In this document: positions 11,893 to 20,207 of the stretch, one piece after another | Layout of the letters: each line of letters opens with the position of its first letter | Numbering within the stretch: the first letter of the stretch is position 1 | Assembly: GCA_029258885.1 (NCBI GenBank) | Contig: JAPDJW010000001.1 | Location: 128,001 to 192,000 of the forward strand | Direction of reading: 5' to 3' | Origin: Thermoproteota archaeon | Lineage (GTDB): Archaea; Thermoproteota; Thermoprotei; Thermofilales; B9-G17 | Length of the DNA: 64,000 nt | Position numbers and translations under genes: made by a program | The notes under the pieces: model-generated | Told to the model about the DNA's origin: nothing | Database searches by the model: none | The model's input: the letters and a program-made list of their open reading frames with translations, nothing else

Positions 11893-12285
11893 ATGGTCAT
11901 GATGGATACTCTAGCTAATGCGCTTGCAACGATAATGAATAATGAGGTCAGAGGAAAGAAGGAGTGTCTAGTATATCCTGCGTCAAAGTTTATTGCTAGA
12001 GTACTTAGAGCCATGCAGAGAGCTGGGTATATAGGCGAGTTTGAGTTTATTGATGATGGGCGCTCAGGAAAGTTAAGAATACAGCTATTAGGTCGTATAA
12101 ATAAATGCGGTGTAATTAAGCCACGTTTTCCCGTGAAACATGATGAGTTCGAGGAATGGGAGAAGAAATATCTGCCTGCAAAGAATATAGGTATTCTCAT
12201 AGTCTCAACTCCCCAGGGAGTTCTAACACATTATGAAGCCAAGGAAAGGGGTATAGGAGGAGTTCTCGTAGCTTACGTATACTAG
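11893..12285 (+). CDS. rps8: 30S ribosomal protein S8
   Basis: [39 protein letters not shown]. Confidence 0.97.
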
Positions 12286-12287
12286 AG

Positions 12288-12695
12288 GTGCGGTTTATGA
12301 ACCGGAACTTAAGTAAAGAGTTGGTTAATCTTCTAAAATTAAGGCGGGAATTAAAGAGCAAGAAGCCACGCTTTATAGTAATGAACGTGTGGTCTAAGCC
12401 TAGGCTTCCAGACGGATGGAGGAGGCCTAAGGGTCTTGATAATAAGATCAGGTTAGAGATAAAGGGATTTCCGAAGAGGGTTAAAGTAGGGTATAGAGGA
12501 CCTAGGAAAGTGAGAAATCTTCATCCATCGGGATACATTGATGTTCTTGTTAATAACATTAAGGAGCTGGAGGTATTAGATCCGAAAATACATGCTATAC
12601 GTATAGCTAGAACCGTGGGGAGGAGAAAGAGAGAGGAAATTATTAAAAGGGCCGAGGAATTAGGTTTTAAGATCCTGAATCCTGAGAGGGAGTAG
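12288..12695 (+). CDS. rpl32e: 50S ribosomal protein L32e
   Basis: WRRPKGLDNKIR, VGYRGP..VRNLHPSG. Confidence 0.96.
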   Translation: MRFMNRNLSKELVNLLKLRRELKSKKPRFIVMNVWSKPRLPDGWRRPKGLDNKIRLEIKGFPKRVKVGYRGPRKVRNLHPSGYIDVLVNNIKELEVLDPKIHAIRIARTVGRRKREEIIKRAEELGFKILNPERE

Positions 12696-12699
12696 GCTT

Positions 12700-13128
12700 A
12701 TGTCATTAAAGTTTGTTAGGAGGCTTGCGGCCGAAGTTCTAAAAGTAGGAGAAAGCAGGGTCTGGATAGATCCTGATAGCTTTGATAGAGTAAGTGAGGT
12801 CATTTCAAGGGAGGATGTTAGAAGGTTAATAAAAGATGGTGTAATTAAGGTTAGACCCAAGTCCACGCCATCCAGAGGCAGGTTGAGAATGCGGAGGAAG
12901 AGGAGGAGAGGACCCGGTAGCCGTAAGGGAAGCACTATATCTCAAAAGGAGTTATGGATGGCTAAAGTGAGAGCGCAGAGAAAGTTTCTGAAATTATTGA
13001 GGAGGAAAAGGATCATTGATAGGAAAACTTATAGGAAGTTGTATATGATGGTTAAAGGTAATGCTTTCAGAAGCGTGGCACACTTAAAGCACTATATTAT
13101 TGAGCATAAGTTGGCGAGGAGGATATAG
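12700..13128 (+). CDS. rpl19e: 50S ribosomal protein L19e
   Basis: [40 protein letters not shown]. Confidence 0.96.
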
Positions 13129-13129
13129 G

Positions 13130-13744
13130 ATGGCGAGGAACGGCAGGTATAGGGTTCCCTTTAAGAGGAGGAGGAAGGGATTAACCAACTACTACAAACG
13201 GAAGAAGATGATATTGTCAGGAAAACCACGACTTATAGTCCGCAAATCCAATAAACACGTAATAGTACAAGTAGCCACAGCCAAGATACAGGGAGACGAA
13301 ATAATAACCTCGGCTTCATCTATAGAGCTTGAGAAAAAGTTCGGATGGAAGGGAGCTACTAGGAATACTCCTGTAGCATACCTTGTAGGTCTTCTAGCCG
13401 GACTTAAAGCGTTAAAAAGGGGAGTGAAGGAAGCCATATTAGATATAGGATTACATAGGCCTATAAGAGGAGCAATAGTATTTGCGGCAGCTAAGGGGGC
13501 ATTAGATGCCGGATTAAAAATTCCCATAGGTGAAGAGGTTCTTCCCGAAGAGGAGAGAATAAGAGGAGAACATATAGCTAATTACGCCAAAATCCTGCTA
13601 GAGGAGGATTTAGAGAAGTACAACAAGCAGTTCTCAAGATACCTATCGAGAGGATGGGATCCCACTCTACTTCCCAAGTACTTTGAGGAAGTTAAGAGTA
13701 AGATTTTAGAGTTAAAATCAGAATTAAGCCATCCTTCTAATTAA
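13130..13744 (+). CDS. rpl18: 50S ribosomal protein L18 (uL18)
   Basis: [48 protein letters not shown]. Confidence 0.96.
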
Positions 13745-14200
13745 ATCGTTAATAGCTTTTCCTCTATATCCTAATTCTCCGCCTCTCTTATAGTGGACCT
13801 TAATAGATCCTTTAAATCCTCCAGAGGGAGGGCTTAACCTAAAAACTGGTTTTAGCCCAGGTATTTTCCTGATATCTACCTTAGACGTAATTATTGCCTT
13901 AGCTAGATCTTCTATGCTTTTAAAGCCTAATTTTTTAACGTATTCCTCTGTTAGCTTCTTATTTCCTCTTAATCTTCCCCTACGCTCTAGCAGCAAGGTA
14001 AGCGTTTCTTCGTCTATCTCACCCCATGTAATCCAGTTTTCAGCCTTTTTAAGCATACCCATCATAGAAGGGTTATCGTCCACAAGAACTAAGTGGAACT
14101 TTTTATGTAATCTAAGTAACTCAAGAGTTTTCTTTACATCTGGCGGTACATCTACTTGTCCTCTTATCCTGATGACAGCGAGCTTCATCAGCTTCACCAA
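13724..14200 (-). CDS. rpl30: 50S ribosomal protein L30 (uL30), inverted
   Basis: [35 protein letters not shown]. Confidence 0.96.
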
Positions 14201-14808
14201 TCTGTTGACACCTTAATAGCATACGTATTTCTTAATGCATTAAATACAGCTGAAGCGAAATTCAATGATGTTCTGGTTTCGCCTCTAACTCTAGTCCATA
14301 CATCCTTGATTCCTGCAAGCCTTAGGACAGCTTTCGCTATATCTCCAGCTACTAGACCCACGCCCTTAGGAGCAGGCAATAGTTCAGCTATCACACTTCC
14401 ACTTTTCCCGACAACCTTAAAGGGTAAGCTATGTGGTTCTCCGCAGAAGCATTCCCAGCTACCGCATCCCCTACGTACCGGGATAATGTTTAACTTAGCG
14501 TTAACAATGGCTTTCTCTATAGCCTGACGAACTTGCCTCGCCTTACCTGTCCCAAGCCCTACATATCCGTCTTCATTACCTACAACAACGACGACCCTAA
14601 ACTGGCTTACTTCTCCTGCATCTGTCTGCCTTTGAACGAGATTTACCGACAAGACTTCATGCTTTATGTCAGGTAGTAGGGTATCTATAATCTCTACTTC
14701 TTTTATAGGTAGATTCATGGCGAATATCTCATCTAGACTGGTAATTTTCCCCTCCTTTACAAGCCTTCCTACTTTAGTTCTGGGAACCCACTCTATACTC
14801 TGACTCAT
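14194..14808 (-). CDS. rps5: 30S ribosomal protein S5, inverted
   Basis: [40 protein letters not shown]. Confidence 0.97.
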
Positions 14809-15593: not shown

Positions 15594-16231
15594 GTTATTC
15601 GATAGGTGTGCTAGCTAAGGCTATAGAAGAAGCTAAGGCGAAAGCTAAAAAGAGGAGATTTAAGCAGAGTGTTGAGCTTATAGTTGTTTTAAGGGACGTC
15701 GATGTGAGAAAGCCTGAAAATAGGATAAATATGCCTGTTTTTTTACCGAATCCGCCTTCAAAGGAGGCAAAGGTATGCGTGATAGCATCAGGAGACTTGG
15801 AGCTTAAGGCTAAGAATTCAAGGGCAGATCTTGTAGTATCAAGGGATGAGTTAATTAAGCTAGCTGACAATAAAAAGGCAGCTAAGGATCTTGCTAAGAA
15901 ATACGACTTTTTCCTGGCGCAGGCTGATTTAATGCCAACTATAGGAAGGCTTCTAGGTAGATATTTAGGCCCTAGGGGTAAAATGCCTCAACCTGTAACT
16001 AGCTCAATGAATATAAATGCTCTAGTTGATAGGTTCAAAAGATCTGTCAGAATTAGGATTAAGAATCAGCCTGTAATAAGTTGCAGGATAGGTACGGAGG
16101 ATCAGGATAGTAAAAAATTAGCTGAAAATGCCATGGCTATATTAAATGCCATAGAGAGTAAGTTTAAGAAGCAAAACATAGATAGGATTTACGTTAAGTT
16201 GACCATGGGACCAGCCGTTAAGGTCAGGTAG
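15590..16231 (+). CDS. rpl1: 50S ribosomal protein L1
   Basis: RRFKQSVELIV, LGRYLGPRGKMP, YVKLTMGPAVKV. Confidence 0.97.
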   Translation: MSYSIGVLAKAIEEAKAKAKKRRFKQSVELIVVLRDVDVRKPENRINMPVFLPNPPSKEAKVCVIASGDLELKAKNSRADLVVSRDELIKLADNKKAAKDLAKKYDFFLAQADLMPTIGRLLGRYLGPRGKMPQPVTSSMNINALVDRFKRSVRIRIKNQPVISCRIGTEDQDSKKLAENAMAILNAIESKFKKQNIDRIYVKLTMGPAVKVR

Positions 16232-16245
16232 TGGAGGTGTATATA

Positions 16246-17115
16246 ATGGTGTATGTAAGGCAGAAGGCTATTCCTTCATGGAAGAAGGAGTGGGTAGCCG
16301 AATTTACAGAGTTAGTTAAGAAGTATAGGACTATAATGATAGTTGGAATAGAGGGAGTAAGTGCACCAGTATTGCATGAAATAAGGTCATTAATTAAGAG
16401 TAGGAATGGGGTACTTAAAGTAATAAAGAATACGTTATTTAGTAGAGTTATTGATAATGTAAAGGATAAATGTAAAAATATAGAGAAACTAAAGGAACAC
16501 CTGCGTGGATCCAATGCGTTAATTCTAACTAATGACAATCCATTTTCCTTAAAGCTTTTCCTGGATAAAAACAAGGTTCCAAGGGAGGCTAGAGCCGGAG
16601 ATATAGCACCAAAGAACATTGTAGTTTACTCCGGAAACACGAATATGGCCCCAGGACCGATACTCAGCCTTTTCAATAAACTTAACGTACCAACTTCGAT
16701 AAAAGAAGGCAGCATTTGGGTCACAAAAGACACGGTCGTAGTTAAAAAGGGAGAAGTTATATCTCAGGATGTAGCCGAGCTTCTAAGGAGGCTCGATATT
16801 AAACCTATAGAGGTAGGCTTAAACGTAAAAGTGGCCTATGTAGATGGAATAATTATTAATGCAGAAGATCTAGAGCTAGATCTTGAGGACTACAGGAGTA
16901 GAATAGCGGAGTCTGTCCGCAACGCTATAAACCTAGCAGTAAATGCAGCCTTTCCAACAAGTGAAAGTATCAAGGTGATAATAGGAAAGTGTTATAATGA
17001 AGCTATCAATTTATCAGTAAACGCCGTAATTCCATTGCCAGAAACACTAAGTATGATTATCACGAAAGCACAGGTCATAGCGAAGACCATAGCTGATAGG
17101 GCTGGACTAAAATAA
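16246..17115 (+). CDS. rpl10: 50S ribosomal protein L10 (P0)
   Basis: IPSWKKEWV, KVIKNTL, ARAGDIAP, TNMAPGPIL. Confidence 0.96.
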   Translation: MVYVRQKAIPSWKKEWVAEFTELVKKYRTIMIVGIEGVSAPVLHEIRSLIKSRNGVLKVIKNTLFSRVIDNVKDKCKNIEKLKEHLRGSNALILTNDNPFSLKLFLDKNKVPREARAGDIAPKNIVVYSGNTNMAPGPILSLFNKLNVPTSIKEGSIWVTKDTVVVKKGEVISQDVAELLRRLDIKPIEVGLNVKVAYVDGIIINAEDLELDLEDYRSRIAESVRNAINLAVNAAFPTSESIKVIIGKCYNEAINLSVNAVIPLPETLSMIITKAQVIAKTIADRAGLK

Positions 17116-17170
17116 TTCTACAGTATAAACCTAAGATATTTTAATCCAGTTATCCTATCTAAATTTCTGT

Positions 17171-19222
17171 ATGAGAACAGATACCTACGCTGAGATTCTC
17201 AAGGTATTGGCAAATAAAATAAGGTTAGAAATTTTGCGTGCTCTATACCATAAGGGACAATTATCTTTTACTAATCTTGAGTCAGCGTTAGGTCTAAACG
17301 AGTCAGAGAGGGGCAAGTTTGCCTATCATTTAAACTTACTAAAGGAACATGGATTAGTTGAATATGATAATGTAAGAGCTGTCTATAGTCTTTCAAAGCT
17401 CGGCAAGATGCTTTTTAGTCATATACGGATAATAGAAGAGGAAGTACTAAAAAAACGGAAAGGCAAGTTGATTTTCCTGTATTCGGCAAAGGAAGATTCC
17501 TTGGAAAAGCTTACGAAAGAGACGTTATGTTATTATCTAACCAAGAATGTAGGCCTGCCCAAAAGCCTAGCTAATAAAATTTATATATACATACGTGAAA
17601 TGTTGGAAAAGCTAGCAGAGGATGAGGTTATCTCTGATGATCTGCTTGAAGATATAACGTATTTCTATCTATTAGATCAAAATTATATAGATATATACCT
17701 GGACAATTTGAAAATAGGATATCCTTTAAAATCGTTTACGGAGAAAGTCTCGGATACAAGCACTGTGAGCCTAACATGTTCGTTAGCTCGCGAATACATA
17801 TTTAATAGGCTAGTTACCGATAGATGCAAGGTTTGGATAGCAAAAAATATAATCTTCATAAACAAAATCTGTGATATTTTAAATTCTCCTATTTCTATAG
17901 ACTTTCCTTTAAATGCCTTCGCTTCTCTATGGAAAAATCATATTTTTATGAGAACATTCCTCAGCGAAATATTTAGAATTATAAAATCATATAAAATAAA
18001 TATATTCTTTTCGGATGTTGAAAGTATACTACCTCTAATGCCCAATGAAAGTAAAGAGTTGTTTTACAAGTTCTTGTTAATCACCAAATACCTGCTTGTA
18101 GACACAGATAACATTATTTCAGTAAACATGAATCTAAACCATGGCAAACTGGAATATATTTTGGAATTTCTAAAGAGTTTGAAGAGACAATATTATGGGG
18201 CTGACTTTGTAAGCAGATCTCATCACATTCTCATATACACTAAAGGCATAAGACCCATTATTGACAACAGGAAGTTAGGTCGCGTTACATATGATCTTGT
18301 CCAAGACCATTGGCCAGTCTTTTTCTCCGATGATGGAGATTGTTCGTTATTCTGTAGTGAGGGGAAAATAACTATTCATTCAGGCAGTGTTGCTGTCGTT
18401 CTTCCTACATTAACTTTACTTTCAAAGAATGATGAGACGATAATTGTTAGCTACTTAGAGGAGATCCTTGGTGATATCGTAGTTTTCTTTATTAACCATA
18501 ATAAATTGGTAAGAGAGAAATGGAAGGAAATGATAAAGAGTCTTGAAATCGATATTGCAGACATTAAATTTAGCTATTCTATCCCTATAGTTGGATCACA
18601 TGTATCATCTGTTATGATAAACCGTAGTTTTAATAAAAATTTTATAAGAAATATATATATTCAAGCCAGAAATATTTTAGAGGATGTTATAAGTAACCTA
18701 CCGATTCGTGAAGAAATAGATGTTAAAGTAACAGCAATTAACCAAGACTTGGACATTTTTAAGACTATAGAATTTAATATGTTAAGAATTTTATCGAAGA
18801 AATTGCCGTCACATAGCGAGATCCTAAGAAACTTTAATGTAACGGGATTTTTATCGCATGCTTTAAGAATTCCTGCCTCCGAAAGAATAAGAATGGAGGG
18901 ACAGTTACAGAATGAAACAAAGGTTCAAAGCCTCTTAAACATTCATATAAGTCATCCCTTTGTCCCATTCTCGGATTTTAAAAAGCTACTTAGTTTGATG
19001 TTAGAGGATAACGTAAGATTAGCTACGATAACACAGGACTACACAGTGTGTGAAGACTGTTTATCGAAGGAACAAGGCTTTCTAAGTATGTGTCCTAATT
19101 GTTCAAGCTATAGGCAAAGTCACTACGGGAAAGTATTATACCGATATATTCCCCTCAACAGCCTAAATTCATTGTCTAAGAAAGAATATATCTCGAGAAT
19201 CAGATACACCTATATCTCCTAG
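17171..19222 (+). CDS. ArsR-type wHTH + ATP-cone + degenerate class III ribonucleotide reductase (NrdD)-fold protein
   Basis: N-terminal LANKIRLEILRAL..SFTNL..GKFAYHLNLL; ATP-cone-like residues ~100-175; C-terminal CEDC..CPNCSS then YGKVLYRYIP..N..KKEYISR, aligning to the NrdD tail without the radical Gly. Confidence 0.75.
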   Translation: MRTDTYAEILKVLANKIRLEILRALYHKGQLSFTNLESALGLNESERGKFAYHLNLLKEHGLVEYDNVRAVYSLSKLGKMLFSHIRIIEEEVLKKRKGKLIFLYSAKEDSLEKLTKETLCYYLTKNVGLPKSLANKIYIYIREMLEKLAEDEVISDDLLEDITYFYLLDQNYIDIYLDNLKIGYPLKSFTEKVSDTSTVSLTCSLAREYIFNRLVTDRCKVWIAKNIIFINKICDILNSPISIDFPLNAFASLWKNHIFMRTFLSEIFRIIKSYKINIFFSDVESILPLMPNESKELFYKFLLITKYLLVDTDNIISVNMNLNHGKLEYILEFLKSLKRQYYGADFVSRSHHILIYTKGIRPIIDNRKLGRVTYDLVQDHWPVFFSDDGDCSLFCSEGKITIHSGSVAVVLPTLTLLSKNDETIIVSYLEEILGDIVVFFINHNKLVREKWKEMIKSLEIDIADIKFSYSIPIVGSHVSSVMINRSFNKNFIRNIYIQARNILEDVISNLPIREEIDVKVTAINQDLDIFKTIEFNMLRILSKKLPSHSEILRNFNVTGFLSHALRIPASERIRMEGQLQNETKVQSLLNIHISHPFVPFSDFKKLLSLMLEDNVRLATITQDYTVCEDCLSKEQGFLSMCPNCSSYRQSHYGKVLYRYIPLNSLNSLSKKEYISRIRYTYIS

Positions 19223-19226
19223 GTTA

Positions 19227-19805
19227 CTAGGTTATTTTCTTAAAGAAAAAGTAGTTGACCAAAGCTATACATTGGCTGGTTAGATACGATACTGGTCCAA
19301 GGCTAATTCTAGTGGCATTTACGTTATTAAGGAATCGTTCTTGTTCTACACATAAACCCTTTTGATCACCTAATATAAAAAGATAATTCACTTTCCTATT
19401 GAAATTAAATTCCTGTATTGGAGAACCGTCTTCAACTAAATATATAGGCTTAAATTCTCTTATCAAATTAGTAACTAATTTCCTAAAGTCTAGCTTATAT
19501 AGCTTAATTCCAGGAAACTTTCTACCTCTCATGGCATCAATGAGAATTTCACATAAATCTATCTCGCTCTCCGGTAATGATGATACTCTATTGCCGTCTA
19601 TCTCTATTACGAGGGGAGGAGAAGGAGGGCCTTCAAGTAAGGCGTAGAATTTTATCATACCTTTAAAACGGTTAGGCATAGAGAAGGCCGATAGAATGCT
19701 TCTGAGTATTAGGTCAAATCTACCACTAGTAGAAGCAATGGATCTTATATTGAAATCAGGGCTTGTATGCGCAGTAGATGATTTAACTAAATATGCTATT
19801 TTCAT
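19227..19805 (-). CDS. trmY: tRNA (pseudouridine54-N1)-methyltransferase TrmY
   Basis: SGRFDLILRSILSAF, LEGPPSPP, FILGDQKGL, ISLGPVSYLTSQCI. Confidence 0.88.
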   Translation of the reverse strand: MKIAYLVKSSTAHTSPDFNIRSIASTSGRFDLILRSILSAFSMPNRFKGMIKFYALLEGPPSPPLVIEIDGNRVSSLPESEIDLCEILIDAMRGRKFPGIKLYKLDFRKLVTNLIREFKPIYLVEDGSPIQEFNFNRKVNYLFILGDQKGLCVEQERFLNNVNATRISLGPVSYLTSQCIALVNYFFFKKIT

Positions 19806-20092
19806 CTGCCCAAGGATATTCTTTTCTTCCTCTCTTCACGAGATCTAATTCTTATAACTCCCTGAAATATTGCACAATTGATACATAAGTACTTAGTTAC
19901 ATAGTAGCGTGGAATTATAGCTCCTTGTGCACGTAATTCTCTTTCAAGCTGAGGATCTATTAAGCTTAGCCTCCTAGTAACTCTGACCGCTTTAGATCTT
20001 GGTATCAGTGCTCCACATGCGTCACATTGAACTATACTCTCCTTTCCTTTACCACCTTTATGTCTTCCCCTATTTTTTCGCTTTTTAGGCAT
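19802..20092 (-). CDS. rps26e: 30S ribosomal protein S26e
   Basis: MPKKRKNRGRHKG, VQCDACG..IPRSKA, YLCINCAI..IRIRSREER. Confidence 0.96.
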   Translation of the reverse strand: MPKKRKNRGRHKGGKGKESIVQCDACGALIPRSKAVRVTRRLSLIDPQLERELRAQGAIIPRYYVTKYLCINCAIFQGVIRIRSREERKKRISLGR

Positions 20093-20114
20093 ACTAACAC
20101 CTCTTGAATTATTT

Positions 20115-20207
20115 GGGAGGGTTTTCACCGCCCGTTAACACTCACCTTCATAGCCCGACGCAATCGTCGGCCTCCGGGAGCTCTCTGCGAGCGGTATACA
20201 CCCTCCC
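20115..20207 (-). ncRNA. Unassigned GC-rich structured RNA or 5' leader upstream of rps26e
   Basis: Nested stems GGGAGGGT/ACCCTCCC, TACCGC/GCGGTG, CCGACG-ATTG-CGTCGG; G-U pairs favour the minus strand; TATA boxes at 20222-20243. Confidence 0.55.

Follow-up and report, generated by a model that had tools for sequence, protein, structure and literature searches.

What does a class III ribonucleotide reductase (RNR) become when the residues of catalysis are gone and a DNA-binding domain stands at its head? The question is raised by a gene in a 64,000-nucleotide stretch of DNA from an archaeon of the order Thermofilales, here called the window (contig C3:128001–192000, from a genome of 2.1 Mb that is 99.9% complete). 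The gene is an uninterrupted open reading frame (ORF) at window positions 17171–19222 on the forward strand, stop codon included, and its product, P0001, is 683 amino acids (aa) in length. An earlier note, made from the letters of the sequence, had delimited this ORF correctly and had proposed a catalytically dead class III reductase (NrdD) joined to a winged helix-turn-helix (wHTH) domain and an ATP-cone, with nucleotide-sensing gene regulation as its function. The evidence below supports well that P0001 joins a wHTH to the scaffold of a class III RNR that has lost its catalytic activity. As to its role, this non-catalytic descendant of NrdD probably binds DNA and is most likely a regulator of transcription.

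Fold and active site of the protein

Curated sequence models support only the two ends of P0001, and the middle therefore required profiles and structure. At the N-terminus, Pfam DUF7347 (PF24038) matches residues 8–82 with an E-value of 2.6e-10, and HTH_20 scores 30.5 bits against a cut-off of 27; the NCBIfam model HTH_metalloreg stays below its cut-off (36.6 vs 55). At the C-terminus, Pfam NRDD (PF13597) matches residues 567–679 only, the last 113, with 31.3 bits against a cut-off of 26.2. The NCBIfam NrdD equivalogs all fall far below their cut-offs (38.8 vs 585, 29.2 vs 326 and 29 vs 545).

Homologues were obtained by an exhaustive phmmer search of 1.8 billion cluster representatives; a word-index search matched P0001 alone. 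The phmmer search gave 188 cluster representatives, about 110 of which are 560–800 aa in length and match at both the N- and C-termini. With hhalign, the 110-sequence family alignment (A1) was compared with the NrdD of the same genome (P0003). The family profile matches this reductase with a probability of 100 and an E-value of 5e-42 over 501 columns (query 208–683), at a body identity of about 13%.

An AlphaFold model computed from P0001 as a single sequence reached a predicted local distance difference test score (pLDDT) of 36, and the alignment-based model, with a pLDDT of 89.1 and a predicted template modelling score of 0.80, was used instead. Top Foldseek matches to this model are all class III reductases, the best being that of T. 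maritima (4u3e, E 1.2e-14). VIA-align superimposes model residues 188–682 on 4u3e with a Z-score of 28.8 and a root-mean-square deviation of 3.5 Å over 469 residues. With NrdDs that bear an ATP-cone (P. copri 8p23, S. thermophilus 9d3x), the alignment begins at model residue 100. On this model, the predicted fold of P0001 is the full NrdD fold over the whole body, and the NrdD-like body that the earlier note had read from scattered landmarks is borne out.

The head of the protein is equally recognizable. AlphaFold predicts four helices, a beta wing and a fifth helix at the N-terminus; the recognition helix is GKFAYHL, and a long helix, residues 76–96, runs into the next domain. When the family profile is compared with the PDB, it finds the structures of HlyU, NolR, ArsR and SmtB with E-values from 6e-7 to 9e-4. 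His53 and Gly78, both in the winged helix, are the only invariant columns among the 110 family sequences. Thus, the ArsR-like character claimed for this domain holds.

The landmarks of a working enzyme are known from P. copri NrdD, which has the thiyl radical residue Cys416, the radical-bearing Gly711, an HxHD motif at 157–160 and the ATP-cone residues Lys7 and Arg8; HxHD binds the triphosphate of the substrate (PMC11226230). The corresponding positions were surveyed in one alignment of the 110 family representatives, with the NrdD of the genome and that of a relative as references. The radical Gly is replaced by Tyr657 in P0001, where KVLYRY is aligned to RIVGYY of NrdD. Gly is found at this position in 16 of the 110 representatives, and the tail is missing altogether in 46. 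The position varies freely among relatives, which have G, A, S, T, L, I, N, D, V or Y. The Tyr that follows the radical Gly is Arg658 in P0001 and is Tyr in 6 of 110.

The motif of the thiyl Cys (CCRL/GCR) falls in P0001 within a deletion of about 34 residues relative to the NrdD of the same genome, and a remnant of the finger loop, DGDCSLFCSEGK, is left. Only four of the 110 representatives keep this Cys; the other 106 have lost it. Cys and Gly are both at the aligned catalytic positions in a single representative. The remnant in P0001 does contain Cys391 and Cys395, but neither aligns to the motif or is conserved among orthologues, and even near-identical variants differ in this remnant (F394L, S396N, G398E). 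The second Cys, equivalent to C79 of the T4 enzyme, is Ser in P0001 and is unconserved in the family, Thr, Ser and Glu being commonest.

Three further signatures have been replaced. HxHD reads F229-I-N231-K232 in P0001; across the family the first His is present in 59 of 110 and the second in 7 of 110. The segment VAVVLPTL (residues 407–414) lies opposite vtvNLPRi of NrdD, as the earlier note had paired them, so that the NLPR motif runs from Val410 to Thr413 and its Asn is Val410; this Asn is retained in 105 of 110 representatives. The GG pair is V585-Q586, with Gly in 87–90 of 110. The only NrdD landmark of those surveyed to survive in P0001 is the Zn ribbon, whose cysteines (C627, C630, C641, C644) stand opposite the four of NrdD, and Cys is found there in about 89 of 110 sequences.

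With six catalytic and substrate-binding features missing (radical Gly, thiyl-Cys finger loop, second Cys, HxHD, NLPR Asn, GG pair), P0001 cannot reduce nucleotides. The replacement of the radical Gly by Tyr and of GG by VQ, the alignment of YSIPIVG and ERIRMEG with NrdD equivalents and the position of the Zn site are all as first read. Neither the Gly nor the catalytic Cys is present at the aligned active-site positions, the C-terminal part is NrdD-like, and the survey extends the loss of both residues to most homologues.

The family and its ATP-cone

A scan of the species-genome collection with two family peptides gives at least 594 family loci; the locus counts that follow refer to the best 80 of these, found with an alignment of 20 canonical members, and all 80 are of the Bathyarchaeia type (L034–L113). 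Typical members pass Pfam DUF7347, ATP-cone (29–38 bits) and NRDD, whose full model is matched with as many as 307 bits. Databases label members as ‘ribonucleoside-triphosphate reductase’, ‘ATP-cone domain-containing protein’ or ‘hypothetical’, and a literature search found no paper that describes the wHTH/ATP-cone/dead-NrdD architecture. In a phylogenetic tree the 110 representatives stand apart from two real-NrdD outgroups with a support of 100, a separation to which long-branch effects possibly contribute. P0001 belongs to a long-branched clade of 17 representatives, the named ones being from Thermofilum or Thermoprotei metagenome-assembled genomes (MAGs), and its own terminal branch is very long (1.78 changes per column). 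Thermofilum sp. ex4484_79 is the deposited source of a fragment in the 90%-identity cluster of P0001.

Neighbouring genes give an indication of what typical members may do. An nrdD-like gene lies directly downstream on the same strand at 21 of the 80 Bathyarchaeia loci. The seven such genes that were inspected all have the glycyl-radical motif [WY]SRV.GY, and two of the seven show CCRL. At 36 of the 80 loci the family gene is convergent with pyrB, and at 20 with pyrI. These nrdD, pyrB and pyrI neighbours tie the family to nucleotide metabolism.

Two Bathyarchaeia members (L038:3041–5299 and L103:6043–8301) have a Cys in TGCRF at the thiyl position and Ala at that of the radical Gly (FSRVSAK and FSRISAK). 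By analogy with alanyl-radical enzymes (PMC11528403), these two might not be dead. Typical members are also deposited in two bacterial MAGs, those of a Krumholzibacteriaceae and an Acidiferrales species (L068, L094); since these proteins are 45–48% identical to Bathyarchaeial ones, binning contamination is likely.

The ATP-cone is where P0001 departs most from its family. No domain of the canonical members is better conserved than the cone, which has a mean pairwise identity of 49%, compared with 36% for the wHTH and 21–25% for the body, and 6 of 10 scanned family members pass the Pfam ATP-cone model at 29–38 bits. The cone of P0001 is 17–18% identical to that of any relative, and Pfam ATP-cone (PF03477) gives no match. 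A hidden Markov model (HMM) built from canonical family cones matches residues 109–172 weakly, at 19–24 bits. The family cone motif VRTSR...F..KI reads LIFLYSAKEDSLEKLTKE in P0001, with LYSAK in place of VRTSR; the VRTSR hairpin of the family occupies the place of V-x-K-R-x-G, the canonical K-R dyad, in canonical cones. The best-kept parts of P0001 lie elsewhere, namely the wHTH (31–33% identity to relatives) and the Zn ribbon and tail (33% within the clade).

Predicted secondary structure and the structural alignment from residue 100 fit a cone fold. Judged from its sequence, the segment 97–182 would thus be an eroded cone, a cone by descent that is without the residues expected to hold the triphosphate. 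The ATP-cone-like segment of the earlier note is therefore recovered by the family-cone HMM and by structural alignment, and is not recovered by Pfam. Nucleotide sensing fares differently. It is plausible at the level of the family; for P0001, with its eroded cone and with HxHD gone, it is unsupported and is only an inference inherited from the family.

Locus, working reductases and rival explanations

Features of the gene and its surroundings are listed in Table 1.

Table 1. P0001 and adjacent features in window coordinates
Feature	Residues of P0001	Position	Strand	Basis
Whole gene P0001, wHTH/ATP-cone remnant/dead NrdD		17171..19222	+	ORF read
ArsR-like wHTH (DUF7347)	1–96	17171..17458	+	Pfam, profile hits, AlphaFold secondary structure
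Putative eroded ATP-cone	97–182	17459..17716	+	Family-cone HMM, alignment, structural alignment
NrdD alpha/beta-barrel body without active-site residues	183–622	17717..19036	+	hhalign, Foldseek, VIA-align, site census
Finger-loop remnant DGDCSLFCSEGK	388–399	18332..18367	+	Alignment
Zn ribbon and former glycyl-radical tail HYGKVLYRY (Tyr657 at 19139–19141)	623–683	19037..19219	+	BLASTP vs own NrdD, Pfam NRDD, site census, codons checked
Ribosomal protein L10/P0 (rpl10), upstream neighbour		16231..17115	+	PF00466 and PF17777
Spacer rpl10–P0001, 55 bp, with TATA-like words AGTATAAA (17122–17129) and TATTTTAA (17137–17144)		17116..17170	+	By-eye reading
SPOUT RNA methyltransferase, TrmY-like, convergent downstream		19227..19805	-	Pfam PF04013
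Ribosomal protein S26e, convergent downstream		19802..20128	-	Pfam

The genes upstream of P0001 encode L11, L1 and L10/P0. The two TATA-like words in the spacer lie about 46 nt (AGTATAAA) and about 31 nt (TATTTTAA) ahead of the ATG; read by eye, the spacing of TATTTTAA fits a promoter of its own and a near-leaderless mRNA, which the gene may have. The convergent TrmY-like/S26e pair is syntenic across the order, at the loci of eight relatives (G002, G006, G007, G009, G013, G015, G019, G036), six of which were re-checked with longer flanks. The genes at these loci are taken as orthologues of P0001 because these convergent neighbours are common to them. Sister genomes of the order, which are complete, have frames of 630–675 aa whose N-terminus is a matching wHTH.

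The position directly after rpl10, where rpl12 is usually found, had drawn attention in the earlier note. The adjacency is real, and the sole PF00428 (rpl12) match of the genome is on another contig (C2, L033), detached from rpl10. However, rpl10 is not upstream of the P0001 orthologue in any of seven same-order relatives examined, six of which share only the downstream TrmY-like/S26e pair. Upstream of the orthologues in Thermofilales relatives there are instead genes for a SpoU methylase, DUF2192, L10e and EF-1alpha. The adjacency is thus local to the source genome and was rejected as a clue to function.

Elsewhere in the window, S8, L32e, L19e and L18 are encoded on the forward strand in the region 11893–14808, and the next two genes, L30 and S5 as read by translation, on the reverse strand. 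The strand switch looks like a local inversion of the usual ribosomal order.

The P0001 gene has been maintained. In addition to the syntenic orthologues in eight other genomes of the order, there are ten intact variants from different metagenomes, all 683 aa in length with 2–18 changes each, mostly conservative. The metagenome scan gave no close DNA relatives of the gene that could be used for a ratio of nonsynonymous to synonymous substitution rates (dN/dS). The G+C content of the gene, 33.6%, is lower than that of the whole window, 39.6%.

Separate working reductases, which the earlier note had suggested looking for, were found in the genome. There are two intact nrdD genes elsewhere, one scoring 487 bits and the other, split by an intein, 292+169 bits, and one nrdG (144 bits, above the cut-off). 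No gene for a class I or II RNR large subunit was found in the genome, and neither nrdD has a PF03477 match. The second nrdD (L003:2125–3624, C1:225648–228875) is interrupted after NRDD model position 200, ahead of position 201, by about 470 residues that contain intein splicing and LAGLIDADG domains, the whole being a single open frame of 1127 aa. Two other ATP-cone proteins were seen in the genome: a 292-aa protein that combines the cone with an Mrr-type restriction-endonuclease domain, to which it is fused, and with an AF1548-like C-terminus (L122:817–1695, reverse strand), and a 192-aa protein with an N-terminal ATP-cone and no further Pfam domain (L123:1156–1734, reverse strand).

A link between P0001 and RNR promoters, which had been suggested, did not materialize. 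The window contains no RNR gene, and searches of the regions upstream of P0001, nrdD1, nrdD2 and nrdG gave no NrdR-box-like operator. A 9-mer, TAGCTGATA, is common to the upstream regions of P0001 and nrdD2, at about the level expected by chance; the four regions share no 10-mer. When seven orthologous upstream regions were footprinted, AGCT-centred 8-mers emerged, which are unreliable, two of the regions including coding sequence.

A perfect 12-bp palindrome, ATATAGCTATAT, overlaps the start codon of nrdD1 (L001:3366–3375). Its 10-bp core, TATAGCTATA, is also found in the intergenic region upstream of the P0001 orthologue in G015 and G019, about 52 bp before the SpoU methylase gene. The genome has 35 sites with this core compared with 15 for the reversed control, none of them upstream of P0001, and in the window the number of sites at one mismatch (8) is close to the 8.7 expected. 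The palindrome was therefore not accepted as the mark of a regulon; another regulator may bind there, or the sequence may be a promoter element of a general kind.

How might a regulator of this kind work? NrdD is a homodimer. The NrdD body of P0001 would supply the dimer, and two winged helices would thereby face a DNA site with two-fold symmetry. When ATP or dATP binds the conserved cone of a typical member, the oligomeric state or geometry would change, and with it DNA binding; in both NrdR (PMC9110341) and ATP-cone NrdD (PMC11226230), these nucleotides act through the cone on oligomeric state or geometry. In the Thermofilales clade the cone and the old active site would have eroded, with the wHTH and the Zn ribbon and tail staying best conserved. 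P0001 itself might respond to a signal that binds elsewhere, such as at the old specificity site, which lies at the dimer interface, or might bind DNA without a nucleotide signal.

Several points weigh against P0001 being a transcription regulator. No RNR or nucleotide-metabolism gene lies beside P0001 or its Thermofilales orthologues; the neighbours in the window and in these relatives are translation genes (L10, TrmY-like methyltransferase, S26e, SpoU methylase, L10e, EF-1alpha). The regions upstream of P0001, nrdD1, nrdD2 and nrdG have no operator in common beyond chance. The cone has no Pfam match and is missing the conserved basic residues of the family. The long branch and low G+C would also fit relaxed constraint. 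In addition, DNA binding, target site and ligand are at most predictions for all members of the family, P0001 included.

The most serious rival is that P0001 still senses ATP/dATP or deoxynucleoside triphosphates, be it with what is left of the cone or at the old specificity site, and controls nrdD and nrdG as an archaeal functional counterpart of NrdR. Membership of the family speaks for this, as do the strong conservation of the cone in canonical members, which pass Pfam, and the nrdD genes directly downstream in Bathyarchaeia. NrdR is reported to be rare in archaea (PMC9110341), and with no PF03477 match in either nrdD, any dATP feedback would have to act elsewhere. For P0001, however, the cone has diverged from those of all relatives and is without the VRTSR hairpin, HxHD, the NLPR Asn and GG are lost, the clade has no RNR neighbour, and the one 9-mer in common with the region upstream of an nrd gene is no more than chance would produce. 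It is thus doubtful that P0001 acts in this way.

A related and broader proposal concerns the family. Its members may be an archaeal NrdR counterpart built from a reductase, and the Thermofilales clade may have been re-tooled, having dropped ATP/dATP sensing and the RNR neighbourhood and kept the DNA-binding head and the Zn ribbon and tail for another regulon or signal. This can be put forward only tentatively. If true, P0001 would be a pseudoenzyme that has changed jobs twice.

It is improbable that P0001 is instead a pseudoenzyme partner that acts on protein and so tunes the reductase, for example by pairing with an active NrdD in a heterodimer or by using its Zn ribbon and tail to titrate NrdG. 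The dimer-forming body is kept from a homodimeric ancestor, the Zn ribbon and tail are, with the wHTH, best conserved in the clade, where HYG[RK] is also conserved, and close relatives (P0004, P0006, P0007, P0029) still have Gly at the radical position. Yet this leaves the invariant winged-helix residues His53 and Gly78 unexplained, a body about 13% identical to real NrdD makes a specific heterodimer interface unlikely, and the tail is missing in 46 of 110 family members.

Still less can be said for the gene being a decaying, functionless fossil of a regulator. The very long branch and the low G+C speak for decay, as does the absence of almost every family motif, even of the NLPR Asn that 105 of 110 representatives have. 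However, the frame is open across 683 codons, none of the ten independent variants from metagenomes is truncated and most of their changes are conservative, full-length syntenic orthologues are present in several families of the order, and AlphaFold confidence is high; a fossil is thus very unlikely.

That P0001 is an unusual radical enzyme, of an aminoacyl-radical type or a reductase using other residues, is barely credible. Radicals do form in homologues of glycyl-radical enzymes that have Ala, Ser or Thr in place of the Gly (PMC11528403), and the finger-loop remnant has two cysteines. The residue in P0001 is Tyr, however, and the signal in that study came only from Gly substitutions of the native residue. 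Relatives have many different residues at this site, and P0001 has lost both the conserved Cys and the motifs for substrate binding.

Thus a DNA-binding regulator that descends from NrdD is left as the best explanation of P0001. The control of DNA-precursor synthesis in most archaea is poorly understood, and the family is an obvious candidate for it because a DNA-binding domain, an ATP-cone and a dead reductase are joined in its members, which in some lineages are encoded just ahead of a working nrdD. Should the family control DNA-precursor supply, an essential radical enzyme has been recycled as a regulator. Labels such as active ribonucleoside-triphosphate reductase or hypothetical can mislead the metabolic reconstruction of uncultured archaea. 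P0001 is a useful contrast case, and a poor first choice with which to prove the nucleotide-sensor idea.

Comparison with known systems

ArsR/SmtB regulators are homodimers of about 100–120 residues per subunit in which metal or redox sensing takes place at sites within the HTH domain. HlyU, NolR, ArsR and SmtB resemble the N-terminal 90 residues of P0001 in sequence and predicted secondary structure. Unlike these regulators, P0001 is a protein of 683 residues with the wHTH at its head, and a metal site was not identified.

With NrdD (PF13597; 4u3e, 8p2s, 1h79), P0001 shares the ten-stranded barrel over about 470 residues, the Cys4 Zn ribbon at the C-terminus, behind which comes a tail with homology to the glycyl-radical domain, and a putative ATP-cone-type domain ahead of the body, as in some NrdDs. 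It differs in having none of the six catalytic and substrate-binding features listed above (radical Gly, thiyl-Cys finger loop, second Cys, HxHD, NLPR Asn, GG), in its extra N-terminal winged helix and in scoring below all NCBIfam NrdD cut-offs. P0001 is a descendant of NrdD and not a functional member.

NrdR, the RNR-specific repressor of bacteria, consists of a Zn ribbon and an ATP-cone (PMC9110341, PMC12176259). The wider family probably shares its logic, in that a DNA-binding domain is joined to an RNR-type ATP-cone and encoded beside RNR genes. P0001, in contrast, has a winged helix and not a Zn ribbon as the DNA-binding domain, a dead-enzyme body of 500 residues and an eroded cone; NrdR is about 150–170 aa in length with a canonical cone, and its model is absent among the NCBIfam hits of P0001. 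NrdR is at best an analogue of P0001, and not a homologue of the whole protein.

The closest comparison is with the wHTH/ATP-cone/inactive-NrdD family to which P0001 belongs. The clade of P0001 has a degenerate cone and no adjacent RNR gene, and P0001 is, in addition, without the NLPR Asn and the GG pair. What they have in common is the three-part architecture, a common origin, the loss of both cysteines and the GKFAYHL helix. P0001 can be looked at as the eroded extreme of this family, in which the winged helix, the Zn ribbon and the barrel have survived the loss of the nucleotide-binding signatures.

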